From positions 1-15,906 of the forward strand of contig JBJMMA010000008.1 of assembly GCA_045805065.1 (NCBI GenBank): a stretch of 15,906 nucleotides of DNA. Direction: 5' to 3'. The translations under genes were made by a program, and so were the position numbers. Positions 1-10,215 of the stretch are shown in pieces. The notes under the pieces were generated by a model, which saw only the letters and a program-made list of their open reading frames with translations, was not told where the DNA came from and did no database searches. Position 1 is the stretch's first letter, and each line of letters starts with the position of its first letter. The stretch is from Bdellovibrionia bacterium (GTDB lineage: Bacteria; Bdellovibrionota; UBA1018).

Positions 1-148
1 CATCGCCAATCGGGGGCACGCCGCACTCGAATGGCATATTCTTTCGCCGAGTAGGTAGTTTGGGTCCAAGGATGTAGGACACAAGCAGAGCCAGACCGCC
101 AATGGTTGCACCTGCAAGCATCAGAATCAAAACGGGAATGTAAGCCAT
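1..148 (-). CDS. nuoA: NADH-quinone oxidoreductase subunit A, second and canonical-type copy (5' part only, runs off the window edge; absent from the ORF track)
   Basis: Manual translation from ATG at 148: MAYIPVLILMLAGATIGGLALLVSYILGPKLPTRRKNMPFECGVPPIGD. It shows a TM1 helix followed by the typical NuoA/ND3 'K..P(F/Y)ECG..P.G' loop. Confidence 0.92.
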   Translation of the reverse strand, partial: MAYIPVLILMLAGATIGGLALLVSYILGPKLPTRRKNMPFECGVPPIGD

Positions 149-181: not shown

Positions 182-1651
182 CTACCATAAAATAAAGCCG
201 AGCGACTTTCCGGCCCAGGTCAGAACCTGGTTTGCGAAGACGCCTGCGAGGACCATCGGCACTACTAATACGACCAGAAACATCCGCCTTCGAGAGTCGC
301 CCGTGACAGGCGTTTTTCCGGGCACCGAGAGATCGCCAATCAGGTTGAAAGAGAGTCGCGCGATCGCCACCGAAGAAAGAGTGAGCGAAAAAACTCCGAG
401 AGCAGCAAGCGCCAACCATTGATGGCGAACCGCTGCGCCGATCAAAGTAAACTTGGCGATAAAGCCCGGCATCGGTGGAATTCCAACCAAGCAAAGAAGG
501 AAAAGCACCAAACAAATACACTCGGGTACCGCACGAACGAGCATGCCTCTGAGATCAACGAGTCGGTCTGACCCCAGTTCTTCGTAAAAGAAGGACAGAA
601 CATAAAACGTTCCCATCAAGGCAAAGAGCTCAATGACCAGGTTGTAGAGGAGGGCCGCGACACCGACCTGATCCAAGACCAGGATGCCGAGCAGCATGAA
701 TCCGGTTTGAACGATCACAAGGCAGCTGACAAGTCTTTTGGCGCTGGTTTGGCGGTAAGCCAATAGAGAGCCGATCATCATCGACATACCGGCAATCAGG
801 CCAATGATTTTTGGCCACTCGAGTGATCCCAGGATTTGCCAACGGCCTGGCTCCAGGGCGGGTTGTGCGAAAACAGAGATGAAAAAACGAGTCGCTACAG
901 CGAAGCCCGCCGCCCGAGCTCCGACAGAAAGGAACGCGGCAGCTGGCGTTGGAGCACCTTCAAGGACGTCAGGCGTCCAAAAGTACATCGGGAAGGAGCC
1001 AACCTGAAAGCACAAGGCCAAGAGCGAGAGCATGAAGATCACCAGCATCGCCGTATGGCTGAGCGGGTGAGCTAGCAGGCTTTGGTGAATTTCATAAAGG
1101 TTCAGGCTTTGGGTGTGGCCAAACAAAAGAGCAAATCCATAAAGGAGCAGGCCCCCGGCGACGGCGCTGAAAACCATGTACTTTACGGCTGCCTCAACAG
1201 ATGGCATCGATTGTTTTCCATAGCCGGCCAGAAAATAGCCCAAGATATTGAGGCATTGCAGGGCCATGAAAATCAAAAGCAAATCGGCCGAAGATGCGGC
1301 CAGGCACATGGCAAGCGTTGAAGCCAGAATGAGAGCCATGAACTCCGTGTGACGACTTTCTGGGATTTGCTTACTATGGCGCGACGCAACGACGGCAAGC
1401 GCCGCAAGGACGATGAACAGGAGCTTGAAGAAAAGCGAGAGTCCGTCGACAGAAACAGTTCCGTGGAAAATCTGGGCGGGTCCGAGTCGGTACGTGGCCA
1501 GAGTCTGGATGAACGCCGCCCCCAACCCAAACAGGGCCGAAGCTTGCACAAGGCGATGCTGCTCTCCGTGGTACGTGATCTCTGAGATCACGACGAAGGC
1601 TAGCGTCACGGCCAAAATCAGTTCAGGTAGAATCAGCAGGAATTCATTCAC
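182..1651 (-). CDS. nuoN: NuoN-like antiporter-type subunit, divergent (489 aa, GTG start)
   Basis: Hydrophobic multi-TM protein with 'LPEL', 'SVEAAVKY', 'WTPDVLEGAPTP', 'QTSAKRL' and 'GIPPMPGFIAKF' motifs. Last gene after nuoM. Confidence 0.93.
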   Translation of the reverse strand: MNEFLLILPELILAVTLAFVVISEITYHGEQHRLVQASALFGLGAAFIQTLATYRLGPAQIFHGTVSVDGLSLFFKLLFIVLAALAVVASRHSKQIPESRHTEFMALILASTLAMCLAASSADLLLIFMALQCLNILGYFLAGYGKQSMPSVEAAVKYMVFSAVAGGLLLYGFALLFGHTQSLNLYEIHQSLLAHPLSHTAMLVIFMLSLLALCFQVGSFPMYFWTPDVLEGAPTPAAAFLSVGARAAGFAVATRFFISVFAQPALEPGRWQILGSLEWPKIIGLIAGMSMMIGSLLAYRQTSAKRLVSCLVIVQTGFMLLGILVLDQVGVAALLYNLVIELFALMGTFYVLSFFYEELGSDRLVDLRGMLVRAVPECICLVLFLLCLVGIPPMPGFIAKFTLIGAAVRHQWLALAALGVFSLTLSSVAIARLSFNLIGDLSVPGKTPVTGDSRRRMFLVVLVVPMVLAGVFANQVLTWAGKSLGFILW

Positions 1652-1666
1652 GGTTATTTCACCATC

Positions 1667-1694
1667 GCCTATTTGACCAGTGCCTATTTGACCA
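1667..1694. repeat. 13-bp direct repeat (GCCTATTTGACCA x2, 15-bp period) at the nuoM/nuoN junction
   Basis: Identical copies at 1667-1679 and 1682-1694. They duplicate the last codons and TAG stop of nuoM. Confidence 0.85.
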
Positions 1695-3228
1695 TTGAAA
1701 GAAGAGTCACAACCGTCGGCCTGACAAGCTCGATCAGTGGCTTAGGATAAATTCCAAAGAATAGAAGGCTTGCGACCAAAGGAAGCAGGTAGAGCTTTTC
1801 GCGAATCGTAAGATCCGTAAAGGTTGCCGCTCCGTTTTGTTCAGAGTCAGCAAGGCTTCCAAGGAACACATAGCGATACATCGTAAACAAGCAGTAGGCG
1901 GCCAAAAGTCCGGAGATGCCGGCCAGAAGCGCTGCCACAGGATAAGACGAGAAGGCTCCGATGATGATCAGTGAGCTTCCGACAAATCCGCCTGAGCCCG
2001 GGAACGCAAGCAGAGAGGCGACAACGACGCCTGCCACCACTGCAACCGTCGGGGCTTGAAGAGCAATTCCATCAAACACGCGACCTCCGCTTTCGGTGCG
2101 GAAATCCGTTGTGCCAGAGCGCTCGCCCAGGAGATTTGCAAAAAGTCCAAAGCCCGCAATCGCAAGTCCAAGAGCAAGCTTTTGATAAACAGCGCCGACA
2201 AAACCTGGCGAGCTCAAAGAGCCTACGCCCAAAAGTAGGATGCCCACCTGGCTGACGCAGATGAAGGCCAAGAGCTTTCTAAGGTTTCTTTGTGTGACTG
2301 CGCAAAGAGCGCCGACGAGAAGATTGACCGTTCCCACGATCACAATTGCGGGTGCAAAGTGGAGAAGCGTTTCAGGAAAGAGGGTGCAGGTCAGGCGTTC
2401 AAAGATATAGACCGCCACCGGGACCGATGCTGCGCCAAGCGCCACGACAACCGAGAGGGGGGCCTCTTCAGCGGCATGCATGAACCATCCATGAAGTGGC
2501 CAGATCGGAGCACGGAAGGCAAGTCCGATGGAAATCAAGACAAAGGCAACCACCGGAACGGATGCTTCGTAGCCCAGGAACTCAAACATCTTTCCGTTGA
2601 GCTTTCCGCCGGCAAGGTCATGAAGCGAGAAAGTGTGCGGATCGATCGAGTAGTAAATGAGGATGAGGGCTGCAAGAAGGAATGCGTTTCCCACGCAAGC
2701 GGTGACAATCGATCGGAACGCCGCGCTTTCGCGGTCGCGCGTGCCCCAGATCCCAATGAGGAAATAAAATGGGAATGCGGTGAGGGCCCAGAAGAAAAGC
2801 TGAAGAAAAAGATCCTGCGCACAGACTGCTCCAATGAATGCGGTTTGAAGAACCAGAAACAAACCATGCATTCCGCGAACGCCGGTGCGGCGGTTCCACT
2901 CAGCAGAGATGAGGATAGGAAAGAGAATCGATATCAAAAGCACGAGCGGAGCATTCAGCCCGTCGACTGCCATGTCGTAGTGAATGGCGTAAGAGCCGAT
3001 CCAGGCAAAGCTCTCGGTTGCCTGAGGATCTGCCGTTGCGGCCTGCATGGAGACCACGGTCAGGATTCCGCACAGACTTGAAAGGAGACTGGTCGCCAGC
3101 GCGACCCAGCGTCCTGCGGGACGGGATAAATGGTTCTCGCCACGAGTGGAGACATCAGGAAGAAAACCCTGAAGGACGGCCCCGACTACGGGAAGAATGA
3201 TCATCAAGCTAATCAAGTAATTAAACAC
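1684..3228 (-). CDS. nuoM: NuoM-like antiporter-type subunit, divergent (about 514 aa; probable GTG start at 3228 rather than 3264)
   Basis: 'VDGL', 'DLFL..FFW....PFYFLIGIWG', 'PLHGW....EAP', 'PG..GFVG', 'DLTIRE' and 'GIYP' motifs. GAGGGG precedes the GTG at 3228, 13 nt after the nuoL stop. Confidence 0.92.
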   Translation of the reverse strand: MFNYLISLMIILPVVGAVLQGFLPDVSTRGENHLSRPAGRWVALATSLLSSLCGILTVVSMQAATADPQATESFAWIGSYAIHYDMAVDGLNAPLVLLISILFPILISAEWNRRTGVRGMHGLFLVLQTAFIGAVCAQDLFLQLFFWALTAFPFYFLIGIWGTRDRESAAFRSIVTACVGNAFLLAALILIYYSIDPHTFSLHDLAGGKLNGKMFEFLGYEASVPVVAFVLISIGLAFRAPIWPLHGWFMHAAEEAPLSVVVALGAASVPVAVYIFERLTCTLFPETLLHFAPAIVIVGTVNLLVGALCAVTQRNLRKLLAFICVSQVGILLLGVGSLSSPGFVGAVYQKLALGLAIAGFGLFANLLGERSGTTDFRTESGGRVFDGIALQAPTVAVVAGVVVASLLAFPGSGGFVGSSLIIIGAFSSYPVAALLAGISGLLAAYCLFTMYRYVFLGSLADSEQNGAATFTDLTIREKLYLLPLVASLLFFGIYPKPLIELVRPTVVTLLSMVK

Positions 3229-3241
3229 TCTGCCCCTCGCT

Positions 3242-5197
3242 TTAGCGCAGCATTCCCGCGCCAAACAAATAATGAGCCAGGATCACAAGTCCTGAACCCA
3301 TTCCAAACAAAAGATACCATTGCACATCGCCGTTTTGGATGAGCTGAAGAAACTTGGCCGGAGAATCAATGCATCTGCGAACCAGATTTCTTCCATTCAA
3401 TGACACCGCGGTGTCGACTCGAACGATTCCGTTGGCTGTCGAGCGGATGACTGTCGTCAACGCTTTCGGGATCCAGTTTTGCCAAACGTTCTTTTCGATC
3501 AGGGAATCTGCCTGGCTTGTTGCCCAGGTCATTCCATCGATCGTGCGCTTTGCCAGTCGATCCACTCCGTAACCTGAAACAATTACGTGGTGGATCTTGG
3601 CAGCAAAGCCATCCCCTTCAGGCTGCATCGTTTGAAGCGATGCCCAGTAAGCTGCGCCCAGAGAAAGGATCAATGCGCCAATGTAGGCGCCAAAAACTGT
3701 AGCGGTCTCTTCCACGCCAGCTGTCGGAGCTCCGAAAAGGAGTTCCATTAAGGATGGCGCGACTTTGTCCGCGCCGCCTGGGAGCGCGCCTCCCAAGATA
3801 GCGCCGTTCCAAGCAACACCCAGGGAGAGAAGAATCAGGATCGTCGGAATCACAAGCGATGACCAATGAGGCATGCTTGCCACTTTGCGACGGCTCATCA
3901 TCCATCCAAGCTTCCAACCTAAGATAGAGAAGAGAGCAAGACTCGAGAGAGCAGCGGCAGCTTGAGCTGGATCATGCCAGGACTGCATGAGCCAATCGAT
4001 CTGACCACCTGCTGAGACAAATCCTGCAACACCGATCGCCGCGGCGATCCCAAAAAAGCCAGCGGTCTTCGCCCAAATCACGGTTCCGCCAGCTACGGTC
4101 TCATCATTGAGTGGCGCTTCGGCGGACTGAAGCAAAGATTGGCAGCAAGTAAAGGCTGAGACTCCGAGTCCCAGGCCAACAATTAGGGCAAGGGCTGCCT
4201 GTGGAGAAGCCAGGCAGAGGATTGCGGCGGCAAGCGTTGCGCCTGAGGAGAACCAGGCTCCAAGGGATGCTTCCCACTCGGTTTGGAACATTCCCGAGAT
4301 GACTGCCAAAAGAGTTGAAGCAAGGAGCATCCAGCCAAAGACAGAAAAGACCATCTGGTCGCCCAAGCTCATTTGAAGGCGAATCAGAATTCCAAATGTC
4401 GCCCAGGCAGGAAACACCTGAGCCATCGTGATCCGAATCCAAGGAGAGGTTCTTCCTGGGCTAACGGTCCAAGAGAGCAATGGGAAGGGCTGGAGTTGAA
4501 CCAGAAGTCCTGCAAGCAGCAACACGGATCCCACAGTTTCGGAAAGTGATGCGCCTTGAGCAGCCGTGATCCAGTGCTGCGCTTTGGACCAAATGAGCGG
4601 CGCGCGACCTCCCGCGAGAGCACAAGCTCCCAGAATGGAGAGAATCAAACCAAAGGCGCGCTCTCTTCCAAAGCGGATCGCAAGTTCGGATTCCTCTTCA
4701 GCGTCCCAGCGAGAACCCAAGGAGAGAAAGCCCGCGAAGATCACAAGCGATAGCCCCCCAAGAGCAAGCCATGGGGTCAAGGCAAGCCAGCTCAGTGCGC
4801 ATCCGGCTGCTGCAAAAGCAATCGCACTATGCGTGCGCTCGGGGCGAGGCTGACTTGGAAGAACGCGCACGCCGGCAAGAAGGAGGGCGGCAAAGATGAC
4901 GCCTAAGCCCGCGAGCACAAGTCCTTGCGGGTCTTGAAGGATTCCGGCGGGAACGGCGCCTTCGCGGTCCACGGGCCAGATCCAGCCGCGAAGCCAGACA
5001 TGTGCGCGCGATGCTTCTTCAACAAGTCCGTTTCCGGCAAAGATCAGTGCGCCCGCCAATACGGCCAGAAAGAGACCCACTAACCAGTCGCCGTTGCGGG
5101 GAAGCTTTCGTCCCCAAGCGAGCGTGATTACGCCGCTTAACGCAAGAAGCGCGATACTGAGAACTAAGATGAACGGTGCGCTCTGGTTTTGGATCAT
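3242..5197 (-). CDS. nuoL: Highly divergent NuoL-like membrane subunit (651 aa)
   Basis: Lies between nuoK and nuoM and has NuoL-like length and many TM segments. Relics 'PFPLLSW' and 'QTE' remain, plus a long hydrophilic/amphipathic stretch and a C-terminal 'IQNGDVQWY'+TM matching the NuoL lateral helix and last TM. The core motifs are largely eroded. Confidence 0.8.
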   Translation of the reverse strand: MIQNQSAPFILVLSIALLALSGVITLAWGRKLPRNGDWLVGLFLAVLAGALIFAGNGLVEEASRAHVWLRGWIWPVDREGAVPAGILQDPQGLVLAGLGVIFAALLLAGVRVLPSQPRPERTHSAIAFAAAGCALSWLALTPWLALGGLSLVIFAGFLSLGSRWDAEEESELAIRFGRERAFGLILSILGACALAGGRAPLIWSKAQHWITAAQGASLSETVGSVLLLAGLLVQLQPFPLLSWTVSPGRTSPWIRITMAQVFPAWATFGILIRLQMSLGDQMVFSVFGWMLLASTLLAVISGMFQTEWEASLGAWFSSGATLAAAILCLASPQAALALIVGLGLGVSAFTCCQSLLQSAEAPLNDETVAGGTVIWAKTAGFFGIAAAIGVAGFVSAGGQIDWLMQSWHDPAQAAAALSSLALFSILGWKLGWMMSRRKVASMPHWSSLVIPTILILLSLGVAWNGAILGGALPGGADKVAPSLMELLFGAPTAGVEETATVFGAYIGALILSLGAAYWASLQTMQPEGDGFAAKIHHVIVSGYGVDRLAKRTIDGMTWATSQADSLIEKNVWQNWIPKALTTVIRSTANGIVRVDTAVSLNGRNLVRRCIDSPAKFLQLIQNGDVQWYLLFGMGSGLVILAHYLFGAGMLR

Positions 5198-5206
5198 GGG
5201 CTCTGC

Positions 5207-5539
5207 TCAGTTTTTCAGCGACTTGAGGTCGCTCATTTCAATTTTGTTTTTTAGGTAAAATAAACGAATGGCCAGGGCGAATCCTGCCACAAGCTGCGCA
5301 ATACCGCCCACAGCGATGAAAACGCCACCAGCGTGACCGCTCGCGCGCACAACGCCGTCTTGAATAGCGCCGGCAGAGCCGGCTTGAGTTGCGCCAGCAA
5401 AGATTCCTGCGACAACAAACATCATGGTCGCGCCCATGATCATGAGCTGAAGTCCGATCAAAAGACCCAGGAGGGTTCTTCTCATGACGACGCAAACAAG
5501 ACCCATGGCTCCAATCAGGCCAGCTACGGTCATTAACAT
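5207..5539 (-). CDS. nuoK: NuoK-like subunit, divergent (110 aa)
   Basis: Three TM helices, the 'RR.L' loop and the C-terminal 'DLKSLK'. GGAGGTG RBS; overlaps the end of nuoJ. Confidence 0.9.
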   Translation of the reverse strand: MLMTVAGLIGAMGLVCVVMRRTLLGLLIGLQLMIMGATMMFVVAGIFAGATQAGSAGAIQDGVVRASGHAGGVFIAVGGIAQLVAGFALAIRLFYLKNKIEMSDLKSLKN

Positions 5540-6096
5540 GACTCACCTCCCGATTGGGTCTCTGACTTGTTGTCGCCTGACTCTCGGTCACCAGACTCCG
5601 GACGCGCGACAACTCCGCCGCCTACCAAGATCAAAAACAAGGTGAGCGCCAGGACTTCCAGAGAGATGATGTGGTTTTCAACCATGACTCTGCCCAAAGA
5701 AGCGAGATCGTTGCCAGCAGCTGGAGCAGGGATTGGACCGCCTGGGAGATCGGCGGAGCCAAGATAAATAATCGCCGCAAAAGCCGCACCGATTGCGGTT
5801 GCAATCAATGTCGAGACAATGACTTTACGGTTGAGCATCTGACGGAGCGAGCGTTTTTCGCGTTGCTGGGATTCGTATTCGCCAAACATGACCGCAAAGA
5901 AGAAAAGCGCAATGGCAACCAGAGTCGAGATGATCCACTGAAGAACGGCAAGAGTCTCAGCGCCGACGGTAAGAAAGATGCATCCCATGGCAAGGCCTGC
6001 GATCCAGAGCGAGAGAATCGCCTGTCTCATTCCCTGAACCACCGTTGCAGTCAGAGTCGCACCTAAAGCAATTGCTGAAAAGACCCAGCTGATCAT
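5533..6096 (-). CDS. nuoJ: NuoJ-like subunit, divergent (187 aa)
   Basis: 'GAE.LA..Q' and 'LG......I..LEV....L....VG.....R' patterns, five hydrophobic segments, TGATG overlap with nuoI. Confidence 0.88.
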   Translation of the reverse strand: MISWVFSAIALGATLTATVVQGMRQAILSLWIAGLAMGCIFLTVGAETLAVLQWIISTLVAIALFFFAVMFGEYESQQREKRSLRQMLNRKVIVSTLIATAIGAAFAAIIYLGSADLPGGPIPAPAAGNDLASLGRVMVENHIISLEVLALTLFLILVGGGVVARPESGDRESGDNKSETQSGGESC

Positions 6097-6626
6097 CAGT
6101 CGCTATCTCCCATTTCAGCCAGTCTGCGCATTTCGGCCCACTTAGCTTGCTGCTCCGGCGTGACTCTTCCACGGCCAAAGCTTGCGACCATTTCTGGAAG
6201 CTCATAAGCCGCGTTCTCATAACGGCGGGTGTGAGTCAGAGACACAGGCTGACAGGCTTCCACGCAAAGTCCGCAAAAAATGCACTTGGAATAATCAATG
6301 TCAAAAATGGAAACCCAGTCTTTGCCAACGTCCGTGCCGGGTTGAACTTCAATCTTGATGCATTGGGTGGGGCAAACCTTTTCGCAGGCGCCACAACCCG
6401 TGCACTTATCGATGTCATTAAAAAGAAGTCCCCGGGAGCGCGGCGGAAGATCATCCGCCGTCTTCGAGGAAATCGGATCGGGGTATTGCTCGGTGACTTC
6501 CTTTCGGAGATCTCCTGCACTCAAAAGATACGGCAGCGCCGTCATGAAAGAGCCCGACACTGAGCGAACGCCCAGCAGGATTTCCCGAAAGTAGGCTCGA
6601 ATCGTCGAAAAAACAGACTGATTCAC
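6096..6626 (-). CDS. nuoI: NuoI-like 2x[4Fe-4S] subunit (about 176 aa; probable GTG start at 6626 rather than 6755)
   Basis: 'VTEQYP', 'R.RG', CTGCGACEKVCP and CIFCGLCVEAC motifs. GGAGG lies 8 nt before a GTG that overlaps the nuoH stop (GTGA). Confidence 0.95.
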   Translation of the reverse strand: MNQSVFSTIRAYFREILLGVRSVSGSFMTALPYLLSAGDLRKEVTEQYPDPISSKTADDLPPRSRGLLFNDIDKCTGCGACEKVCPTQCIKIEVQPGTDVGKDWVSIFDIDYSKCIFCGLCVEACQPVSLTHTRRYENAAYELPEMVASFGRGRVTPEQQAKWAEMRRLAEMGDSD

Positions 6627-7702
6627 AACATCGCCCTCCACCCTGCCCACAGGGCCGCACCAATCAGAGCTCCCAGCGAGAATGGACTCAGAACCTTCCA
6701 TGAGAAGTCCGTCGTTTGATCCACTCTTGCGCGTGGGTTTACTCTGGCAATCCAAATCAGAATCATCATGAGGCCGTAGGTCTTAGCCAACAGCCAGACA
6801 AGCTCAATGATCTCACGAAGCAAATGCTCGCTGCCATCGGTCACGCGCTCCACCAGCCACGACGGCAAGGTCCATGCGCCCAAGAAAAGAACGACCGTGA
6901 TCTGAGACCAAAGAAAAAATCCGTAGAATCGACCCAGGCGGAACAGGCTCAGTCTTCTTCCAGAGAGATCCGAAGAGACGCCGCCATGAAGATCCATCAC
7001 GGAGAGACCACCATCCATCGGCGGAACGTTCATGATGATGAGTCCGCTGGCGATGAAAACGATCATCGCGATGAATTGAAAAGGATTGGTCGTCGCAGTC
7101 CAATGAAGCGGTGATGCGCCTTGAACCTCCGCGAACGACGCCCAACGAAAGCTTCCGGAGCGGATGCCTGCGCAAAGCACACAGATCAGCGCGGGAAAAG
7201 CGCCAGCAAGGGCTTGAGCCGCAAGCCTGACTCCGCCAAACCACCCACTGACCGTGCCCTGGCTGAAACCCATGAGCATGGTGCCCAGAGCAAGAACGAG
7301 GGCGGACCAAAACGGAAGAAACGCGCTCATGTCCGTGTTGACAAGAATGGCTGCAGATCCCAGCGGCATGACGGCAACGGTTGAGTAGAGTGCCATCGTA
7401 TGGACGCCAAGCCAGAGCGTTTCATGCCAGTTCCATTCGCTGGAAGGCTCTTTCTGCAAAAACTTTAGAAGATCAGCCAGTGGCTGAAGGAGTCCCCAAG
7501 GACCCGAACGATTTGGGCCAACGCGTGCCTGAAAATCCGCGCTTAACTTGCGATCCACGAATGAGACCACTGCACCGCTGGGAAGAATGACGATTGTATA
7601 AATGAAGAAGATCCCAATCGTCGCAACAATCCATAGAGGCGTTCCCGAAGGAAGGCCGATCGTGGATTTCCAGATTTCAAGGGTTTGAGCGAGCGTCATC
7701 AT
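6623..7702 (-). CDS. nuoH: NuoH-like membrane subunit, divergent (359 aa)
   Basis: 'RK.....Q.RVGPNR.GP.GLLQP.AD.LK...KE', 'LFLG.W' and 'PR.R.DQ.....WK' motifs. ATGA overlap with nuoD. Confidence 0.95.
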   Translation of the reverse strand: MMTLAQTLEIWKSTIGLPSGTPLWIVATIGIFFIYTIVILPSGAVVSFVDRKLSADFQARVGPNRSGPWGLLQPLADLLKFLQKEPSSEWNWHETLWLGVHTMALYSTVAVMPLGSAAILVNTDMSAFLPFWSALVLALGTMLMGFSQGTVSGWFGGVRLAAQALAGAFPALICVLCAGIRSGSFRWASFAEVQGASPLHWTATTNPFQFIAMIVFIASGLIIMNVPPMDGGLSVMDLHGGVSSDLSGRRLSLFRLGRFYGFFLWSQITVVLFLGAWTLPSWLVERVTDGSEHLLREIIELVWLLAKTYGLMMILIWIARVNPRARVDQTTDFSWKVLSPFSLGALIGAALWAGWRAML

Positions 7703-8883
7703 CGGTCAGCCTCCGCAATGCTCAGATCGAGGCTTGCAAGTAGAACAGGAAGGTCTTCGATTCTGATTCCAACCAGAACTTCCGGAAGCGCCATCAGAGC
7801 CGCAGTCGTTGGCGTATGAAATTGGATGCGAGAAGGCTTTGGTCCGCCCTCCGAGATCACATGACAAGAAATCATTCCGCGTGAGCTCTCAACGCGCGTG
7901 TAAGCTTCGCCGGATGGTACTTTGATCCGATAGTCTTCAGCGCCTGCCTCGGGGAGAATCTGGCGGTTCAAGAACGCGCCTGACGGAATTGTCTCAGCAA
8001 CATGCTTGAGGATCTCAAGACTTTCCGTCATCTCAAGAAGCTTGAGGAGGAAGCGGTCGTGAGAATCACCTAAGACGCCGTCTGTTCCGCGTCCGACTGG
8101 AACGCGGAAATCGAGGCTTTTATAGCTGAGATAAGGATGCGCCTTGCGAACATCAAAGGTGACGCCTGCAGCACGCGCATTGGAGCCTGTAATTCCAAAG
8201 CGGTTCACAAGCTCAGCGGAGAGAATGCCCATCTTGGCCGTGCGCTTGAGGAACGTATTATTGAAAGTCAGAAGATCATTATATTCCTTGATCCGGATTC
8301 GAATCAGATCGCAGACCTCAAGGACTCGTTCGATAAATCCTTCGGTCACGTCCGCGCTCACGCCGCCAAATCTCAAAAAGTTAATCGAGAATCTTGCGCC
8401 GGTCAGAAGCTCAAAGAGGTCGAGAATGCGCTCTCGATCGCGCAACACGTAGTGAACAAGCGTTTCAGCGCCCACGGCCTTTGAAACATTGACCAGATAA
8501 AGCATGTGCGCGGAGAGGCGCGTCAGCTCTGACAAAATCACACGAATGCTGACCGCACGCGCAGGAACATCAATTCCAGCGATCTCCTCAACGGCCAGAC
8601 AAAGCGCAAGCTCGCCGTAAATGGCGGCCTCTGGATCCAGGTGATCCGAGTAAGCAATCGATGCGTTCCAGTCGTGCTTTTCAATGGCCTTCTCAAGTCC
8701 TTTGTGGAGAAAGCCCGTTTCCACGCTGCCCGAAACGATGATCTCGCCATCCAAAACAAGGCGCAGCTTCATGGGCGCAGGAAGCGATGAGTGATAAGGG
8801 CCAATCTCCCAGCCGATGAGGTCCGTGCGAAGGCACTCAGAGCGTGAACGATGACTTTCGTTTTTTGGCGTCGGGTGCATCAT
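7699..8883 (-). CDS. nuoD: NuoD-like (49 kDa family) subunit lacking the quinone-binding residues (394 aa)
   Basis: 'LDGE', 'G.LH.GLEK', 'LAVE...GI.VP.RA', 'EL.R...H', 'GEAY.RVE..RG' and C-terminal 'D....E.DR'. No NiFe CxxC motifs. Confidence 0.95.
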   Translation of the reverse strand: MMHPTPKNESHRSRSECLRTDLIGWEIGPYHSSLPAPMKLRLVLDGEIIVSGSVETGFLHKGLEKAIEKHDWNASIAYSDHLDPEAAIYGELALCLAVEEIAGIDVPARAVSIRVILSELTRLSAHMLYLVNVSKAVGAETLVHYVLRDRERILDLFELLTGARFSINFLRFGGVSADVTEGFIERVLEVCDLIRIRIKEYNDLLTFNNTFLKRTAKMGILSAELVNRFGITGSNARAAGVTFDVRKAHPYLSYKSLDFRVPVGRGTDGVLGDSHDRFLLKLLEMTESLEILKHVAETIPSGAFLNRQILPEAGAEDYRIKVPSGEAYTRVESSRGMISCHVISEGGPKPSRIQFHTPTTAALMALPEVLVGIRIEDLPVLLASLDLSIAEADR

Positions 8884-9362
8884 TTCGCACTAGCTCCAAC
8901 GGAATAGGATTTGCGCATCGGAAACTCAGAGTCATCCGCTAAGAGCGTTCGGCACGTCTCAATCGTCTCTCCGGATGCATTTTTGAACCGGATTCCAAAA
9001 AGCTGAGCAGCCTCGTTTTCCAACGGTGCAGCCATTGGCCAGACGTCGCAAACAGAGGCGAGCTCTACGGCCTCTTTTTCTGACGTAATGATAACAGAGC
9101 TTCGCATCACGAGCTGCGCCTGGGTTTCACGCGAGCGCAAAAACCAGGAGACAACCAGTGAGTCGCCCACTTCCGCTACGGAAAGATTTTCAAGCCATTG
9201 AAGCTTGAGAGTCGGCTCTTCACTCACGGCCTTTGCAAACGCGTGAACCGCTGTGGATTCGATCCAGACCGAAAGAAGATCCGATCGTCCAAAGCGGCCG
9301 GACTCAAGGACTTTGCCCGGAGCAGCCTTTTCAAGTTTTGAGAGTATCGCGTTCGCTTCCAC
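8880..9362 (-). CDS. nuoC: NuoC-like (30 kDa family) subunit, divergent (about 160 aa; probable GTG start at 9362)
   Basis: 'S...VWP.A...E.E....FGIRF' and 'FPMRK.Y' match the NuoC C-terminal signature. AGGAG precedes GTG at 9362. Lies between nuoB and nuoD. Confidence 0.88.
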   Translation of the reverse strand: MEANAILSKLEKAAPGKVLESGRFGRSDLLSVWIESTAVHAFAKAVSEEPTLKLQWLENLSVAEVGDSLVVSWFLRSRETQAQLVMRSSVIITSEKEAVELASVCDVWPMAAPLENEAAQLFGIRFKNASGETIETCRTLLADDSEFPMRKSYSVGASAK

Positions 9363-9801
9363 GGATCTTCTCCTGAAGGGCAATCAGGCCGTTCATGATG
9401 GCTTCAGGGCGTGGGGGGCAGCCTGGAACGTAAACATCCACAGGGACCACTTCGTGCGCGCCTGAAAGGGTTGAGTAGGAATAGTCGGGTCCGAAAAGTC
9501 CGCCGCAGTTTGCGCACGATCCGACCGCAAGAACGTATTTAGGCGAGAGCATGGAATCATAGAGCTCGCGCAGATGAGGCGCGGCCTTTTTGGAAACCAT
9601 TCCGCTGATGATTAACAAATCCGCTTGTCTTGCATCGACCTGAGGAAGGCATCCAAAGCGCTCCATGTCGTAGCGCGCCCCCATCGTGTTGAGAACTTCA
9701 TCCGCGCAGCAGCCACTGCCGGTTGAGATGTACCAAAGCGATTGGGAGCGAGCCCATTTCAATGCTTTGCCAAGAGTAGAGGTGTAAAAAGAACCAGCCA
9801 T
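9331..9801 (-). CDS. nuoB: NuoB-like (20 kDa family) N2-cluster subunit (156 aa)
   Basis: 'WAR..SLW', tandem CC, 'RYD.ERFG', 'RQADL', 'GSCA..GG' and 'VPVDVYVPGCPPRPEA'. Confidence 0.97.
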   Translation of the reverse strand: MAGSFYTSTLGKALKWARSQSLWYISTGSGCCADEVLNTMGARYDMERFGCLPQVDARQADLLIISGMVSKKAAPHLRELYDSMLSPKYVLAVGSCANCGGLFGPDYSYSTLSGAHEVVPVDVYVPGCPPRPEAIMNGLIALQEKIRGSERDTLKT

Positions 9802-9804
9802 CGC

Positions 9805-10215
9805 TTACCCATTCCCCTTAGTTTTCTGAAATGACTGCACCCAACTCAGATCACCTTTACGGGAGGAGTACAAAAGTCCAAGTCCGCAGAAAGTCGCGAG
9901 CGATACGATCGCAATCAGGCATCGAAGAAATGTTCCCCGATCCGTGGCTTGCTGAAGCATCCCTGTGCATGGAATCAAAATAAGCGCGATTGCCATCAGG
10001 ATCAGGGCCGCGTTAACGCCCAGGAAAAATCGCGCATTGATCTTTCTTCTCAAGAGCTCCGCGGTGACGGCGTTTTGTACGGGCTTCTTTTGGGCTGAGG
10101 CTTTGCCGCGCTCCGCTGAGACCAAATAGGAGAAAAGGCCAAGCAAGGCAGGAACGCCGAGTGCAAGCAGCGCAGAAAGGAACACAACGTAGTAAACATC
10201 CCAGCTGCTTGGCAT
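9805..10215 (-). CDS. nuoA: NuoA-like subunit, divergent (136 aa)
   Basis: Three TM helices, 'RFFL' at the start of TM2 and C-terminal 'Y..RKGDLSW'. First gene, directly before nuoB. Lacks the ECG and FD.E motifs. Confidence 0.85.
   Translation of the reverse strand: MPSSWDVYYVVFLSALLALGVPALLGLFSYLVSAERGKASAQKKPVQNAVTAELLRRKINARFFLGVNAALILMAIALILIPCTGMLQQATDRGTFLRCLIAIVSLATFCGLGLLYSSRKGDLSWVQSFQKTKGNG

Follow-up and report, generated by a model that had tools for sequence, protein, structure and literature searches.

Why would a bacterium maintain a NuoK protein in which both membrane glutamates, the hallmark of this subunit in a working respiratory complex I, have become glutamines? The question is raised by nuoK2, a gene of an 11-gene operon (nuoA-B-C-D-H-I-J-K-L-M-N, here nuo2) on a 15,906-nucleotide stretch of DNA from a Bdellovibrionia bacterium (GenBank assembly GCA_045805065.1, contig JBJMMA010000008.1; the whole stretch is called the window hereafter). 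According to our comparative sequence analysis, NuoK2 is likely an ND4L-type subunit of a conserved, non-pumping, 11-subunit complex-I-like assembly that has no NuoEFG of its own and that strong purifying selection has maintained in one lineage of Bdellovibrionota.

In a working complex I, the NuoK glutamate pair takes up a proton from carboxylates of NuoH and NuoA and passes a charge signal to NuoN; it is at these glutamates that the E-channel hands over to the antiporter-like subunits (10.64898/2026.01.27.702182, PMC9271201 and PMC10212512, from the accessible parts of each). The same parts of these sources assign roles to E36 and E72 of NuoK, D79 of NuoA, E157 of NuoH, E133, K217 and K395 of NuoN, E144, K234 and E407 of NuoM, and K229, K399 and D400 of NuoL. 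The gene in question and the features of it that concern us are as follows.

5207..5539, minus strand: nuoK2, encoding a 110-amino-acid NuoK/ND4L homologue (PF00420, phmmer, AlphaFold2 model)
5447..5449, minus strand: Gln31 codon CAG, in the context GLQLMI, at the position of Escherichia coli NuoK E36
5294..5296, minus strand: Gln82 codon CAG, in the context IAQLVAG, at the position of E. coli NuoK E72
5348..5389, minus strand: T51-V64, an Ala/Gly-rich insertion of 14 residues in the loop between transmembrane helices (TM) 2 and 3, missing from 96-amino-acid orthologues

A preliminary description of the window, made from the letters alone, had placed the gene and the two codons at these coordinates and in these contexts, and rereading of the sequence confirmed them. 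The assignment of the two glutamines to the NuoK glutamate positions likewise stood, with three alignments in agreement and none placing them elsewhere: phmmer against the E. coli chain 3rko_K sets Q31 on E36 and A81-Q82 on A71-E72, a MAFFT alignment with the canonical NuoK of the same genome brings the CIELM and AAAEGA motifs onto the Q31 and Q82 columns, and the PF00420 match is full-length, covering residues 2-109 with 35.4 bits (cut-off 26.1; 35 bits for NuoK2 versus 95 bits for the canonical NuoK of the genome). The start of nuoK2 overlaps the nuoJ2 stop, with a GGAGG sequence 6 nucleotides before the ATG. The AlphaFold2 model, built with 38 sequences, has three helices (residues 2-19, 23-51 and 61-99), with Q31 in the second and Q82 in the third. 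The top 19 chains found for this model by Foldseek in the PDB are all from complex I, NDH-1, MBS/MBH or Mrp entries, with E-values (0.05-1) that are weak, as expected at the small size of NuoK2. The conserved charges of the protein are limited to R20/R21, H69 and R92, every one of them at a helix end, and the helix cores contain no other conserved titratable residue. By sequence and fold NuoK2 is therefore a member of the NuoK/ND4L family, scoring above the PF00420 cut-off and showing three helices and a gene position between nuoJ and nuoL, yet it lacks the defining feature of a proton-relaying NuoK, since Q31 and Q82 stand where the membrane carboxylates of TM2 and TM3 belong.

The Ala/Gly-rich insertion between TM2 and TM3, also part of the preliminary description, is real when measured against the 96-amino-acid orthologues. 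Its length varies even between closest relatives, the window having the longest loop of the 38 homologues, and it is modelled as disordered, the predicted local distance difference test score (pLDDT) being below 50 at residues 53-60. Within it, an imperfect 15-nucleotide direct repeat (gcNggcgcNaNtcaa, two copies) was read by eye, which suggests a recent in-frame duplication.

Both glutamines are strongly conserved. Q31 and Q82 are invariant in all 38 homologues retrieved from a collection of 5.8 billion proteins, down to 45% identity. A scan of one genome per species yielded 21 loci, from records titled Bdellovibrionota, Oligoflexia, Bdellovibrionia, Bdellovibrionales, Bdellovibrio sp. or Bacteriovoracaceae; with the window included, glutamine occupies site 31 in 22/22 and site 82 in 20/22 sequences, the exceptions at site 82 being the two most distant loci (L024 with Val and L025 with Ile). 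The codons in the 21 loci vary synonymously (site 31, CAG in 13 and CAA in 8; site 82, CAG in 13 and CAA in 6), and it is therefore the amino acid that has been kept, not the codon.

For a deeper view, a NuoK2 profile was searched against 1.84 billion cluster representatives, 83 of which rank above the first canonical hit with Glu at both sites. Counts were made on the 80 representatives of at most 250 amino acids, P0040, P0082 and P0095 being left out as longer than this. Site 31 is occupied by Q in 55, H in 13, Y in 4 and N in 2, with E, V, L and I occurring once each, so that Q, H, Y or N accounts for 74 of the 78 representatives without a gap. Site 82 holds Q in 48 and mainly V, F, P, I, A or L in the remainder, and glutamine is found at both sites together in 29/80. 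Only two representatives carry one Glu, and P0045, the sole one with Glu at site 31, has an irregular N-terminal region. Ten lower-scoring members from the GTDB family of the window have Q, H or Y at site 31 and Q, P, I, L or A at site 82, with no acid at either. The preliminary description had asked whether glutamine is fixed at both sites; it is in the clade of the window, but not across the deeper family. There, the rule is that the carboxylate is absent, above all at site 82, and not that glutamine is present; site 31 needs a hydrogen-bonding side chain, while the requirement at site 82 is looser. As for the long sequences set aside, P0040 is a 1494-amino-acid tandem-repeat open reading frame with 22 NuoK2-profile stretches that looks spurious, a translation of repetitive DNA, and the long frames of P0082 and P0095 are products of fusion or mis-calling.

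The preliminary description had also noted E-to-Q, K-to-Q and H-to-Q changes in NuoN, NuoM and NuoL that parallel those in NuoK. This loss of charge was recovered and is wider than had been noted, reaching the quinone site of NuoD and the NuoH/NuoA part of the E-channel. In NuoD2, compared by phmmer with Thermus thermophilus Nqo4 (2fug_4), H38 is replaced by P35 (Pro in 20/22 of the family), Y87 by P84 (Pro in 19/22) and D139 by A136 (Ala in 16/22). The SYE glutamate of NuoH (E. coli E157) is A168 in NuoH2, and none of the 21 family sequences has Glu there (Ala 13, Ser 6, Thr 1, Val 1); the glutamates of the EAExEL loop are mostly lost as well. In NuoA2, the Asp and Glu of the FDVE motif (E. 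coli D79/E81) have become Met and Ile, and an alignment that includes seven canonical NuoA sequences, taken from the operons downstream, shows hydrophobic residues in 18/19 family members at each site, the exceptions being one Thr at the Asp site and one Ser at the Glu site. Y59 of E. coli NuoJ corresponds to S57 of NuoJ2 (family Ser 17, Ala 3, Thr 1; n = 21), where the canonical paralogue has Tyr. The change from NuoJ E55 to Q53 was considered as a further glutamate loss and dropped, since the canonical NuoJ of the genome (contig C105) also has Gln there; E55 is not universal in working complex I and is not to be scored as a loss.

In the antiporter-like subunits, NuoN2 has Q132 for E133 (13/16 of the family), Q216 for K217 (14/16) and R246 for K247 (15/16). 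K395 is retained as K400 (15/16), the only residue kept among the Glu, Lys and His of TM5, 7, 8 and 12 that were checked in NuoL, NuoM and NuoN. In NuoM2, E144 is replaced by A160 (Ala in 9/16, Glu in none), K234 by R251 (Arg in 16/16), K265 by P282 (Pro in 16/16) and E407 by S430 (Ser in 3/16, His in 9/16, Glu in none). The His of the NuoM SxxHxG motif is Q339 in the window, with Gln in 4/16 and Glu in 9/16 of the family. Residue 339 of NuoM is the only one of these sites that gains a new carboxylate in much of the family. NuoL2 has Q234 for K229 (Gln in 17/19) and has lost the TM5 Glu, the His and Lys of TM8 and TM11, and K399; D400 is retained in the window (D409) but in only 5/19 family sequences. 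The proposed pattern of substitution by glutamine in these three subunits hence applies to NuoN E133 and K217 and to NuoL K229, and much less to the NuoM histidine with its 4/16.

NuoL2 is the fastest-evolving subunit, with 27-39% identity to most family members and 82% to its closest relative, L005, only. It was identified through a family profile that finds chloroplast NdhF (E = 1.1e-8). Its C-terminus keeps a LQLIQNGDVQWYL motif, which we take to resemble the end of NuoL.

Other parts of the complex are intact. The cysteines that bind cluster N2 (Cys31, Cys32, Cys96 and Cys128) are present in every genuine NuoB2 row of an alignment of 21 rows, one of which is a truncated canonical NuoB from L012, and both 4Fe-4S motifs with the N6a/N6b ligands are retained in NuoI2. 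In NuoD2, the former quinone loop GPYHxxLPxPM (residues 28-38) and an LDPE motif in place of the Tyr87 motif are near-invariant in the family, a hint of continuing constraint on the pocket.

All 11 reading frames are open in the window and also in each related locus as far as its contig extends. For the pair L018/L019, in which synonymous divergence is unsaturated (dS 0.34-0.51), the ratio of nonsynonymous to synonymous substitution rates (dN/dS) is 0.014 for nuoK and lies between 0.014 and 0.17 across the 11 genes; between the window and L005, nuoK has a dN/dS of 0.025 with dS saturated. Selection rather than random decay had been suggested from the substitutions alone, and the intact frames, these ratios and the synonymous variation of the glutamine codons bear this out. 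That the selection acts to seal proton paths, as was suggested along with it, is a reading to which the sequences may point.

The window is the entire contig C8 of a 4.2-Mb genome that is 94% complete. The 11 genes of nuo2 are tightly packed on the minus strand from 10215 to 182 in the order given above, and nine of the 11 proteins match the expected Pfam families; single-sequence Pfam and PDB searches gave no match for the proteins at the NuoL2 and NuoA2 positions. Besides nuoK2, the genes are the following.

9805..10215, minus strand: nuoA2, identified from its position and its alignment to canonical NuoA
9331..9801, minus strand: nuoB2 (PF01058)
8880..9383, minus strand: nuoC2, start codon uncertain (PF00329)
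7699..8883, minus strand: nuoD2 (phmmer against 2fug_4)
6623..7702, minus strand: nuoH2 (residue comparison and family counts)
6096..6755, minus strand: nuoI2, start codon uncertain (Fer4 families; two CxxCxxCxxxCP motifs in the translation)
5533..6096, minus strand: nuoJ2 (phmmer against 3rko_J)
3242..5197, minus strand: nuoL2, 651 amino acids, extremely diverged (family profile leading to NdhF)
1684..3264, minus strand: nuoM2 (residue alignment and family counts)
182..1651, minus strand: nuoN2 (residue alignment and family counts)
1..148, minus strand: first 49 codons of a canonical nuoA (translation), which opens a 14-gene operon continuing on contig C105

Genes for NuoE, NuoF and NuoG are absent from nuo2, and there is no room for them between nuoD2 and nuoH2, where the nuoH2 start (7702) overlaps the nuoD2 end (7699); the only NuoEFG of the source genome is in the neighboring canonical operon. 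This canonical 14-gene nuo operon lies on contig C105 and includes a NuoK with both glutamates (CIELM and AAAEGA), and nuo2 is therefore not the sole complex I of the cell. Contig C105 starts with the rest of the canonical nuoA and overlaps the left end of the window by 9 nucleotides; the two contigs thus abut, and nuo2 lies directly upstream of the canonical operon, with 33 nucleotides between the nuoN2 stop and the canonical nuoA. The same tandem layout of mfd, nuo2 and canonical nuoA-B-C-D-E-F-G was found in 12/12 loci in which the downstream flank was read, the downstream canonical genes being confirmed by Pfam in L016 and L025 and the alignment of the seven canonical NuoA sequences agreeing. 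On the opposite strand, divergent from nuoA2, are mfd and two genes for SurA-like peptidyl-prolyl isomerases (PPIases). An Mrp-like cluster of the genome is on a separate contig, C129. One promoter-like site precedes nuoA2, a count within chance, and one terminator-like hairpin overlaps the end of nuoN2, which is also within chance (0.4 expected). Among the sequencing runs matching window positions 3242-10215 there were no RNA runs; the matches were six soil-metagenome DNA runs, each with at most 0.37 of the sampled words.

A search of 401 Bdellovibrionota genomes with the NuoK2 profile gave matches of at least 68 bits in 40 genomes (G000 included). Of these carriers 38 belong to the GTDB family of the window and one each to two further families of the same order, whose sequences have Val or Asn at site 31 and Gln at site 82. 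Matches of 45-60 bits in five other families are not members, since the nine loci read among them encode the Glu/Glu NuoK of a seven-gene nuoAHJKLMN cluster without B, C, D and I. The NuoH, J, K, L, M and N proteins of this cluster keep every relay residue that was checked. Seven loci of this type were analyzed (L026-L030, L033 and L034), and in the five in which mfd fell within the fetched stretch (L026, L027, L029, L030 and L034) it lies divergently beside the cluster, which places nuoAHJKLMN at the same chromosomal site as nuo2. The cluster has been described in cultured Bdellovibrio-like strains (PMC13147790, accessible part). It represents a reduction opposite in kind to that of nuo2. A second H-J-K(-L) set follows it directly in four loci (L027, L028, L030 and L033).

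In order to place the charge-free subunits, a tree (LG+G4) was built from 42 NuoM and NuoN sequences, with one canonical M and one canonical N only. The charge-free NuoM sequences form one clade and the charge-free NuoN sequences another, with support of 100 and 99, respectively, in the Shimodaira-Hasegawa-like approximate likelihood ratio test (SH-aLRT), consistent with a single origin. Canonical and AHJKLMN-type M are joined at an SH-aLRT of 85 and N forms a polytomy; as long-branch effects are likely, no conclusion on origin is drawn from these branchings.

How, then, might such a protein work? Glutamine at both sites would form hydrogen bonds and fill the space of the glutamates, and would not be titratable. 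The neighbors in the relay are neutral too, with Ala for NuoH E157, hydrophobic residues at NuoA D79/E81, and Gln for both E133 and K217 of NuoN. With its own two sites and their neighbors neutral, NuoK2 would pass neither protons nor charge along the membrane arm. We posit that it mainly holds the NuoJ-NuoK-NuoN fold together, the glutamines filling what was the polar pocket of the glutamates and keeping the J-K-N interface packed, and that the complex as a whole, if assembled as the operon suggests, would lack any coupling of redox chemistry to ion transport of the known type. Since the iron-sulfur ligands are conserved and the quinone ligands replaced, two of them by conserved prolines, a non-canonical electron acceptor or a redox-sensing or structural partnership is thought most likely. 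In the first case, electrons would run through N6a, N6b and N2 and reduce an acceptor that is not a quinone bound in the canonical way, without pumping; in the second, Nuo2 may act as a redox-sensing or structural/regulatory partner of the canonical complex I encoded 33 nucleotides downstream.

Several observations weigh against this interpretation. Charges missing from the canonical paralogue have been gained in hydrophobic stretches of the Nuo2 proteins, namely E47 in NuoJ2 (20/21), R258 in NuoH2 (21/21; Glu in the canonical protein), E10 (16/16), D327 (13/16) and E377 (14/16) in NuoN2, and E267 (15/16) and also R464 (15/16) in NuoM2, their placement within the membrane resting on a crude hydropathy window. 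K400 of NuoN2 is kept and two lysines have been turned into arginine, deeper branches do without fixed glutamines, such that an isosteric fit is not strictly needed, and the AlphaFold2 model of NuoK2 is of moderate confidence (mean pLDDT 71). Read together, the family-specific charges, the kept K400 and the two arginines could mean that Nuo2 has remained an ion pump or an ion-coupled enzyme, its path rewired through conserved charges of its own and through water wires bordered by Gln, His and Tyr; the hydrogen-bonding nature of site 31 (Q/H/Y/N in 74/78) and the strong conservation of the NuoD2 GPYHxxLPxPM loop would fit such a path. We regard this as unlikely, because the relay is broken at each known step from NuoH to NuoL, including the exit in NuoL (K399 lost, D400 in 5/19), because the helix cores of NuoK2 offer no titratable residue, and because the His/Tyr/Asp site of energy input in NuoD is lost as well.

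It is, in our estimate, rather improbable that Nuo2 subunits mix with or dock onto the downstream canonical complex I, sharing its NuoEFG or serving as its scaffold or regulator. The 33-nucleotide distance to the canonical nuoA, the identical layout in all 12 loci with the flank read, the Pfam-confirmed genes downstream in L016 and L025 and the missing N-module all speak for such an association. Adjacency alone, however, is weak evidence of binding, the operon encodes the full set of 11 core subunits and needs no borrowed core parts, and a terminator-like hairpin stands at the nuoN2 end, although its occurrence is within chance (1 versus 0.4 expected). That nuo2 is a decaying duplicate of complex I, with the change from Glu to Gln as early pseudogenization, is very improbable: almost all residues known to matter for catalysis are gone, NuoL2 and NuoA2 are too diverged for single-sequence matches and a canonical operon adjoins, but the dN/dS values of 0.014-0.17 already contradict it, as do the 11 open frames in the window and the related loci, the occurrence of the type in about 40/401 genomes with NuoM and NuoN in single clades (SH-aLRT 100 and 99), the retention of all iron-sulfur cysteines, and the maintenance of glutamine through synonymous changes.

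The likely reading, that of a conserved non-pumping assembly, bears on a question that is still debated, namely by what mechanism complex I uses quinone chemistry to power proton pumping at a distance of some 200 angstroms. Proteins whose relay residues are neutralized and which are nevertheless under strong purifying selection would indicate that selection can favor the complex I scaffold for a use besides pumping, and Nuo2 is a candidate for a charge-free, stably folded membrane arm that can be used in structural and computational comparisons. More tentatively, and with somewhat less than even confidence, we suggest that nuo2 encodes a stable, selected, all-neutral complex I in which the iron-sulfur wire and the architecture are kept and every residue of the relay has been replaced, beginning at the quinone site and running through NuoH, A, J and K as far as the NuoL tip, frequently with Gln or Arg taking the place of the original. 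Sister lineages have at the same site a charged arm without peripheral-arm genes. If nuo2 and nuoAHJKLMN were orthologous, one ancestral second complex I would have been dismantled in two opposite ways. In that case nuo2 would give models of electrostatic coupling in complex I a negative control made by nature, and it would do work not known from any relative of complex I, for instance electron transfer without coupling, the sensing of redox state or service as a scaffold. There is also a caution for annotation: a gene name such as 'NADH:ubiquinone oxidoreductase subunit K' is no guarantee that the operon codes for a respiratory pump. Where operons of the nuo2 type are annotated as respiratory, metabolic models of uncultured Bdellovibrionota could count complex I twice.

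Compared with canonical NuoK/ND4L/Nqo11 proteins (PF00420), NuoK2 shares the family, the three-helix fold, the position between nuoJ and nuoL and the cytoplasmic Arg-Arg loop, and differs in having Gln for both membrane glutamates and a longer, variable loop between TM2 and TM3. Mutagenesis of NuoK (Kervinen 2004, Kao 2005, Torres-Bacete 2012) reportedly led to large losses of coupled activity. An E. coli NuoK E36A/E72Q variant is in use (PMC11695776, accessible part). Engineered E36/E72 variants are neutralized at the same two positions as NuoK2; they are, however, laboratory mutants in an otherwise intact pump, whereas the change in nuo2 is natural and conserved and the rest of the axis is neutralized too.

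Closest in gene content are the NUO11 complexes of Chlorobi and others and the cyanobacterial and plastid NDH-1, which likewise consist of 11 core gene products without NuoEFG; the best PDB chains for NuoH2 and NuoN2 are NdhA and NdhB, respectively. NUO11 and NDH-1 are reported to keep the pump residues. They also react with quinone, whereas Nuo2 is without quinone ligands and pump residues. The concept of NUO11 as 11-subunit complex I-like enzymes is set out in PMC4758237, the accessible part of which reports that plastid NDH-1 has H38 and D139, as does NUO11 of Chlorobi and of some Gram-positive bacteria; figure S2 of that paper covers nuo clusters of Deltaproteobacteria and Bdellovibrio.

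The nuoAHJKLMN cluster resembles nuo2 in its chromosomal site, with mfd and a PPIase gene diverging from it and canonical nuo genes downstream, and its first gene is closer to NuoA2 than to canonical NuoA by BLAST; it differs in having seven genes, in keeping all pump residues that were checked and in its Glu/Glu NuoK. Another point of comparison is provided by the Ehr (energy-converting-hydrogenase-related) complexes, said to have been treated by Marreiros et al. in 2013. These are relatives of complex I and hydrogenases without NiFe ligands and a recognizable quinone site, and their function is unknown. By this description Nuo2 is alike, but Ehr clusters are smaller and nearer to hydrogenases, whereas Nuo2 has the full nuo gene order and its NuoD2 scores best against true complex I NuoD. 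A group 4 [NiFe]-hydrogenase (Ech, Mbh, Hyc/Hyf) was considered and rejected, as NuoD2 has no Cys pair at its N-terminus (EIGPYHSSLPAPM) or C-terminus (SLDLSIAEADR); in phmmer searches with NuoD2, complex I NuoD outscores the MBH and FHL large subunits by a wide margin. The MrpC subunit of an Mrp antiporter was rejected as an identity for NuoK2, which is encoded in a nuo-ordered operon, the Mrp-like cluster being on C129. In the literature searched, with most subscription journals outside its coverage, no charge-free or quinone-site-free nuo paralogue was described. Set beside a pumping NADH:quinone oxidoreductase, Nuo2 is without NuoEFG in its operon, the quinone ligands of NuoD and the charges of TM5, 7, 8 and 12 in NuoL, NuoM and NuoN; what it has of the defining features are the core subunits NuoA, B, C, D, H, I, J, K, L, M and N and the iron-sulfur cysteines of NuoB and NuoI.

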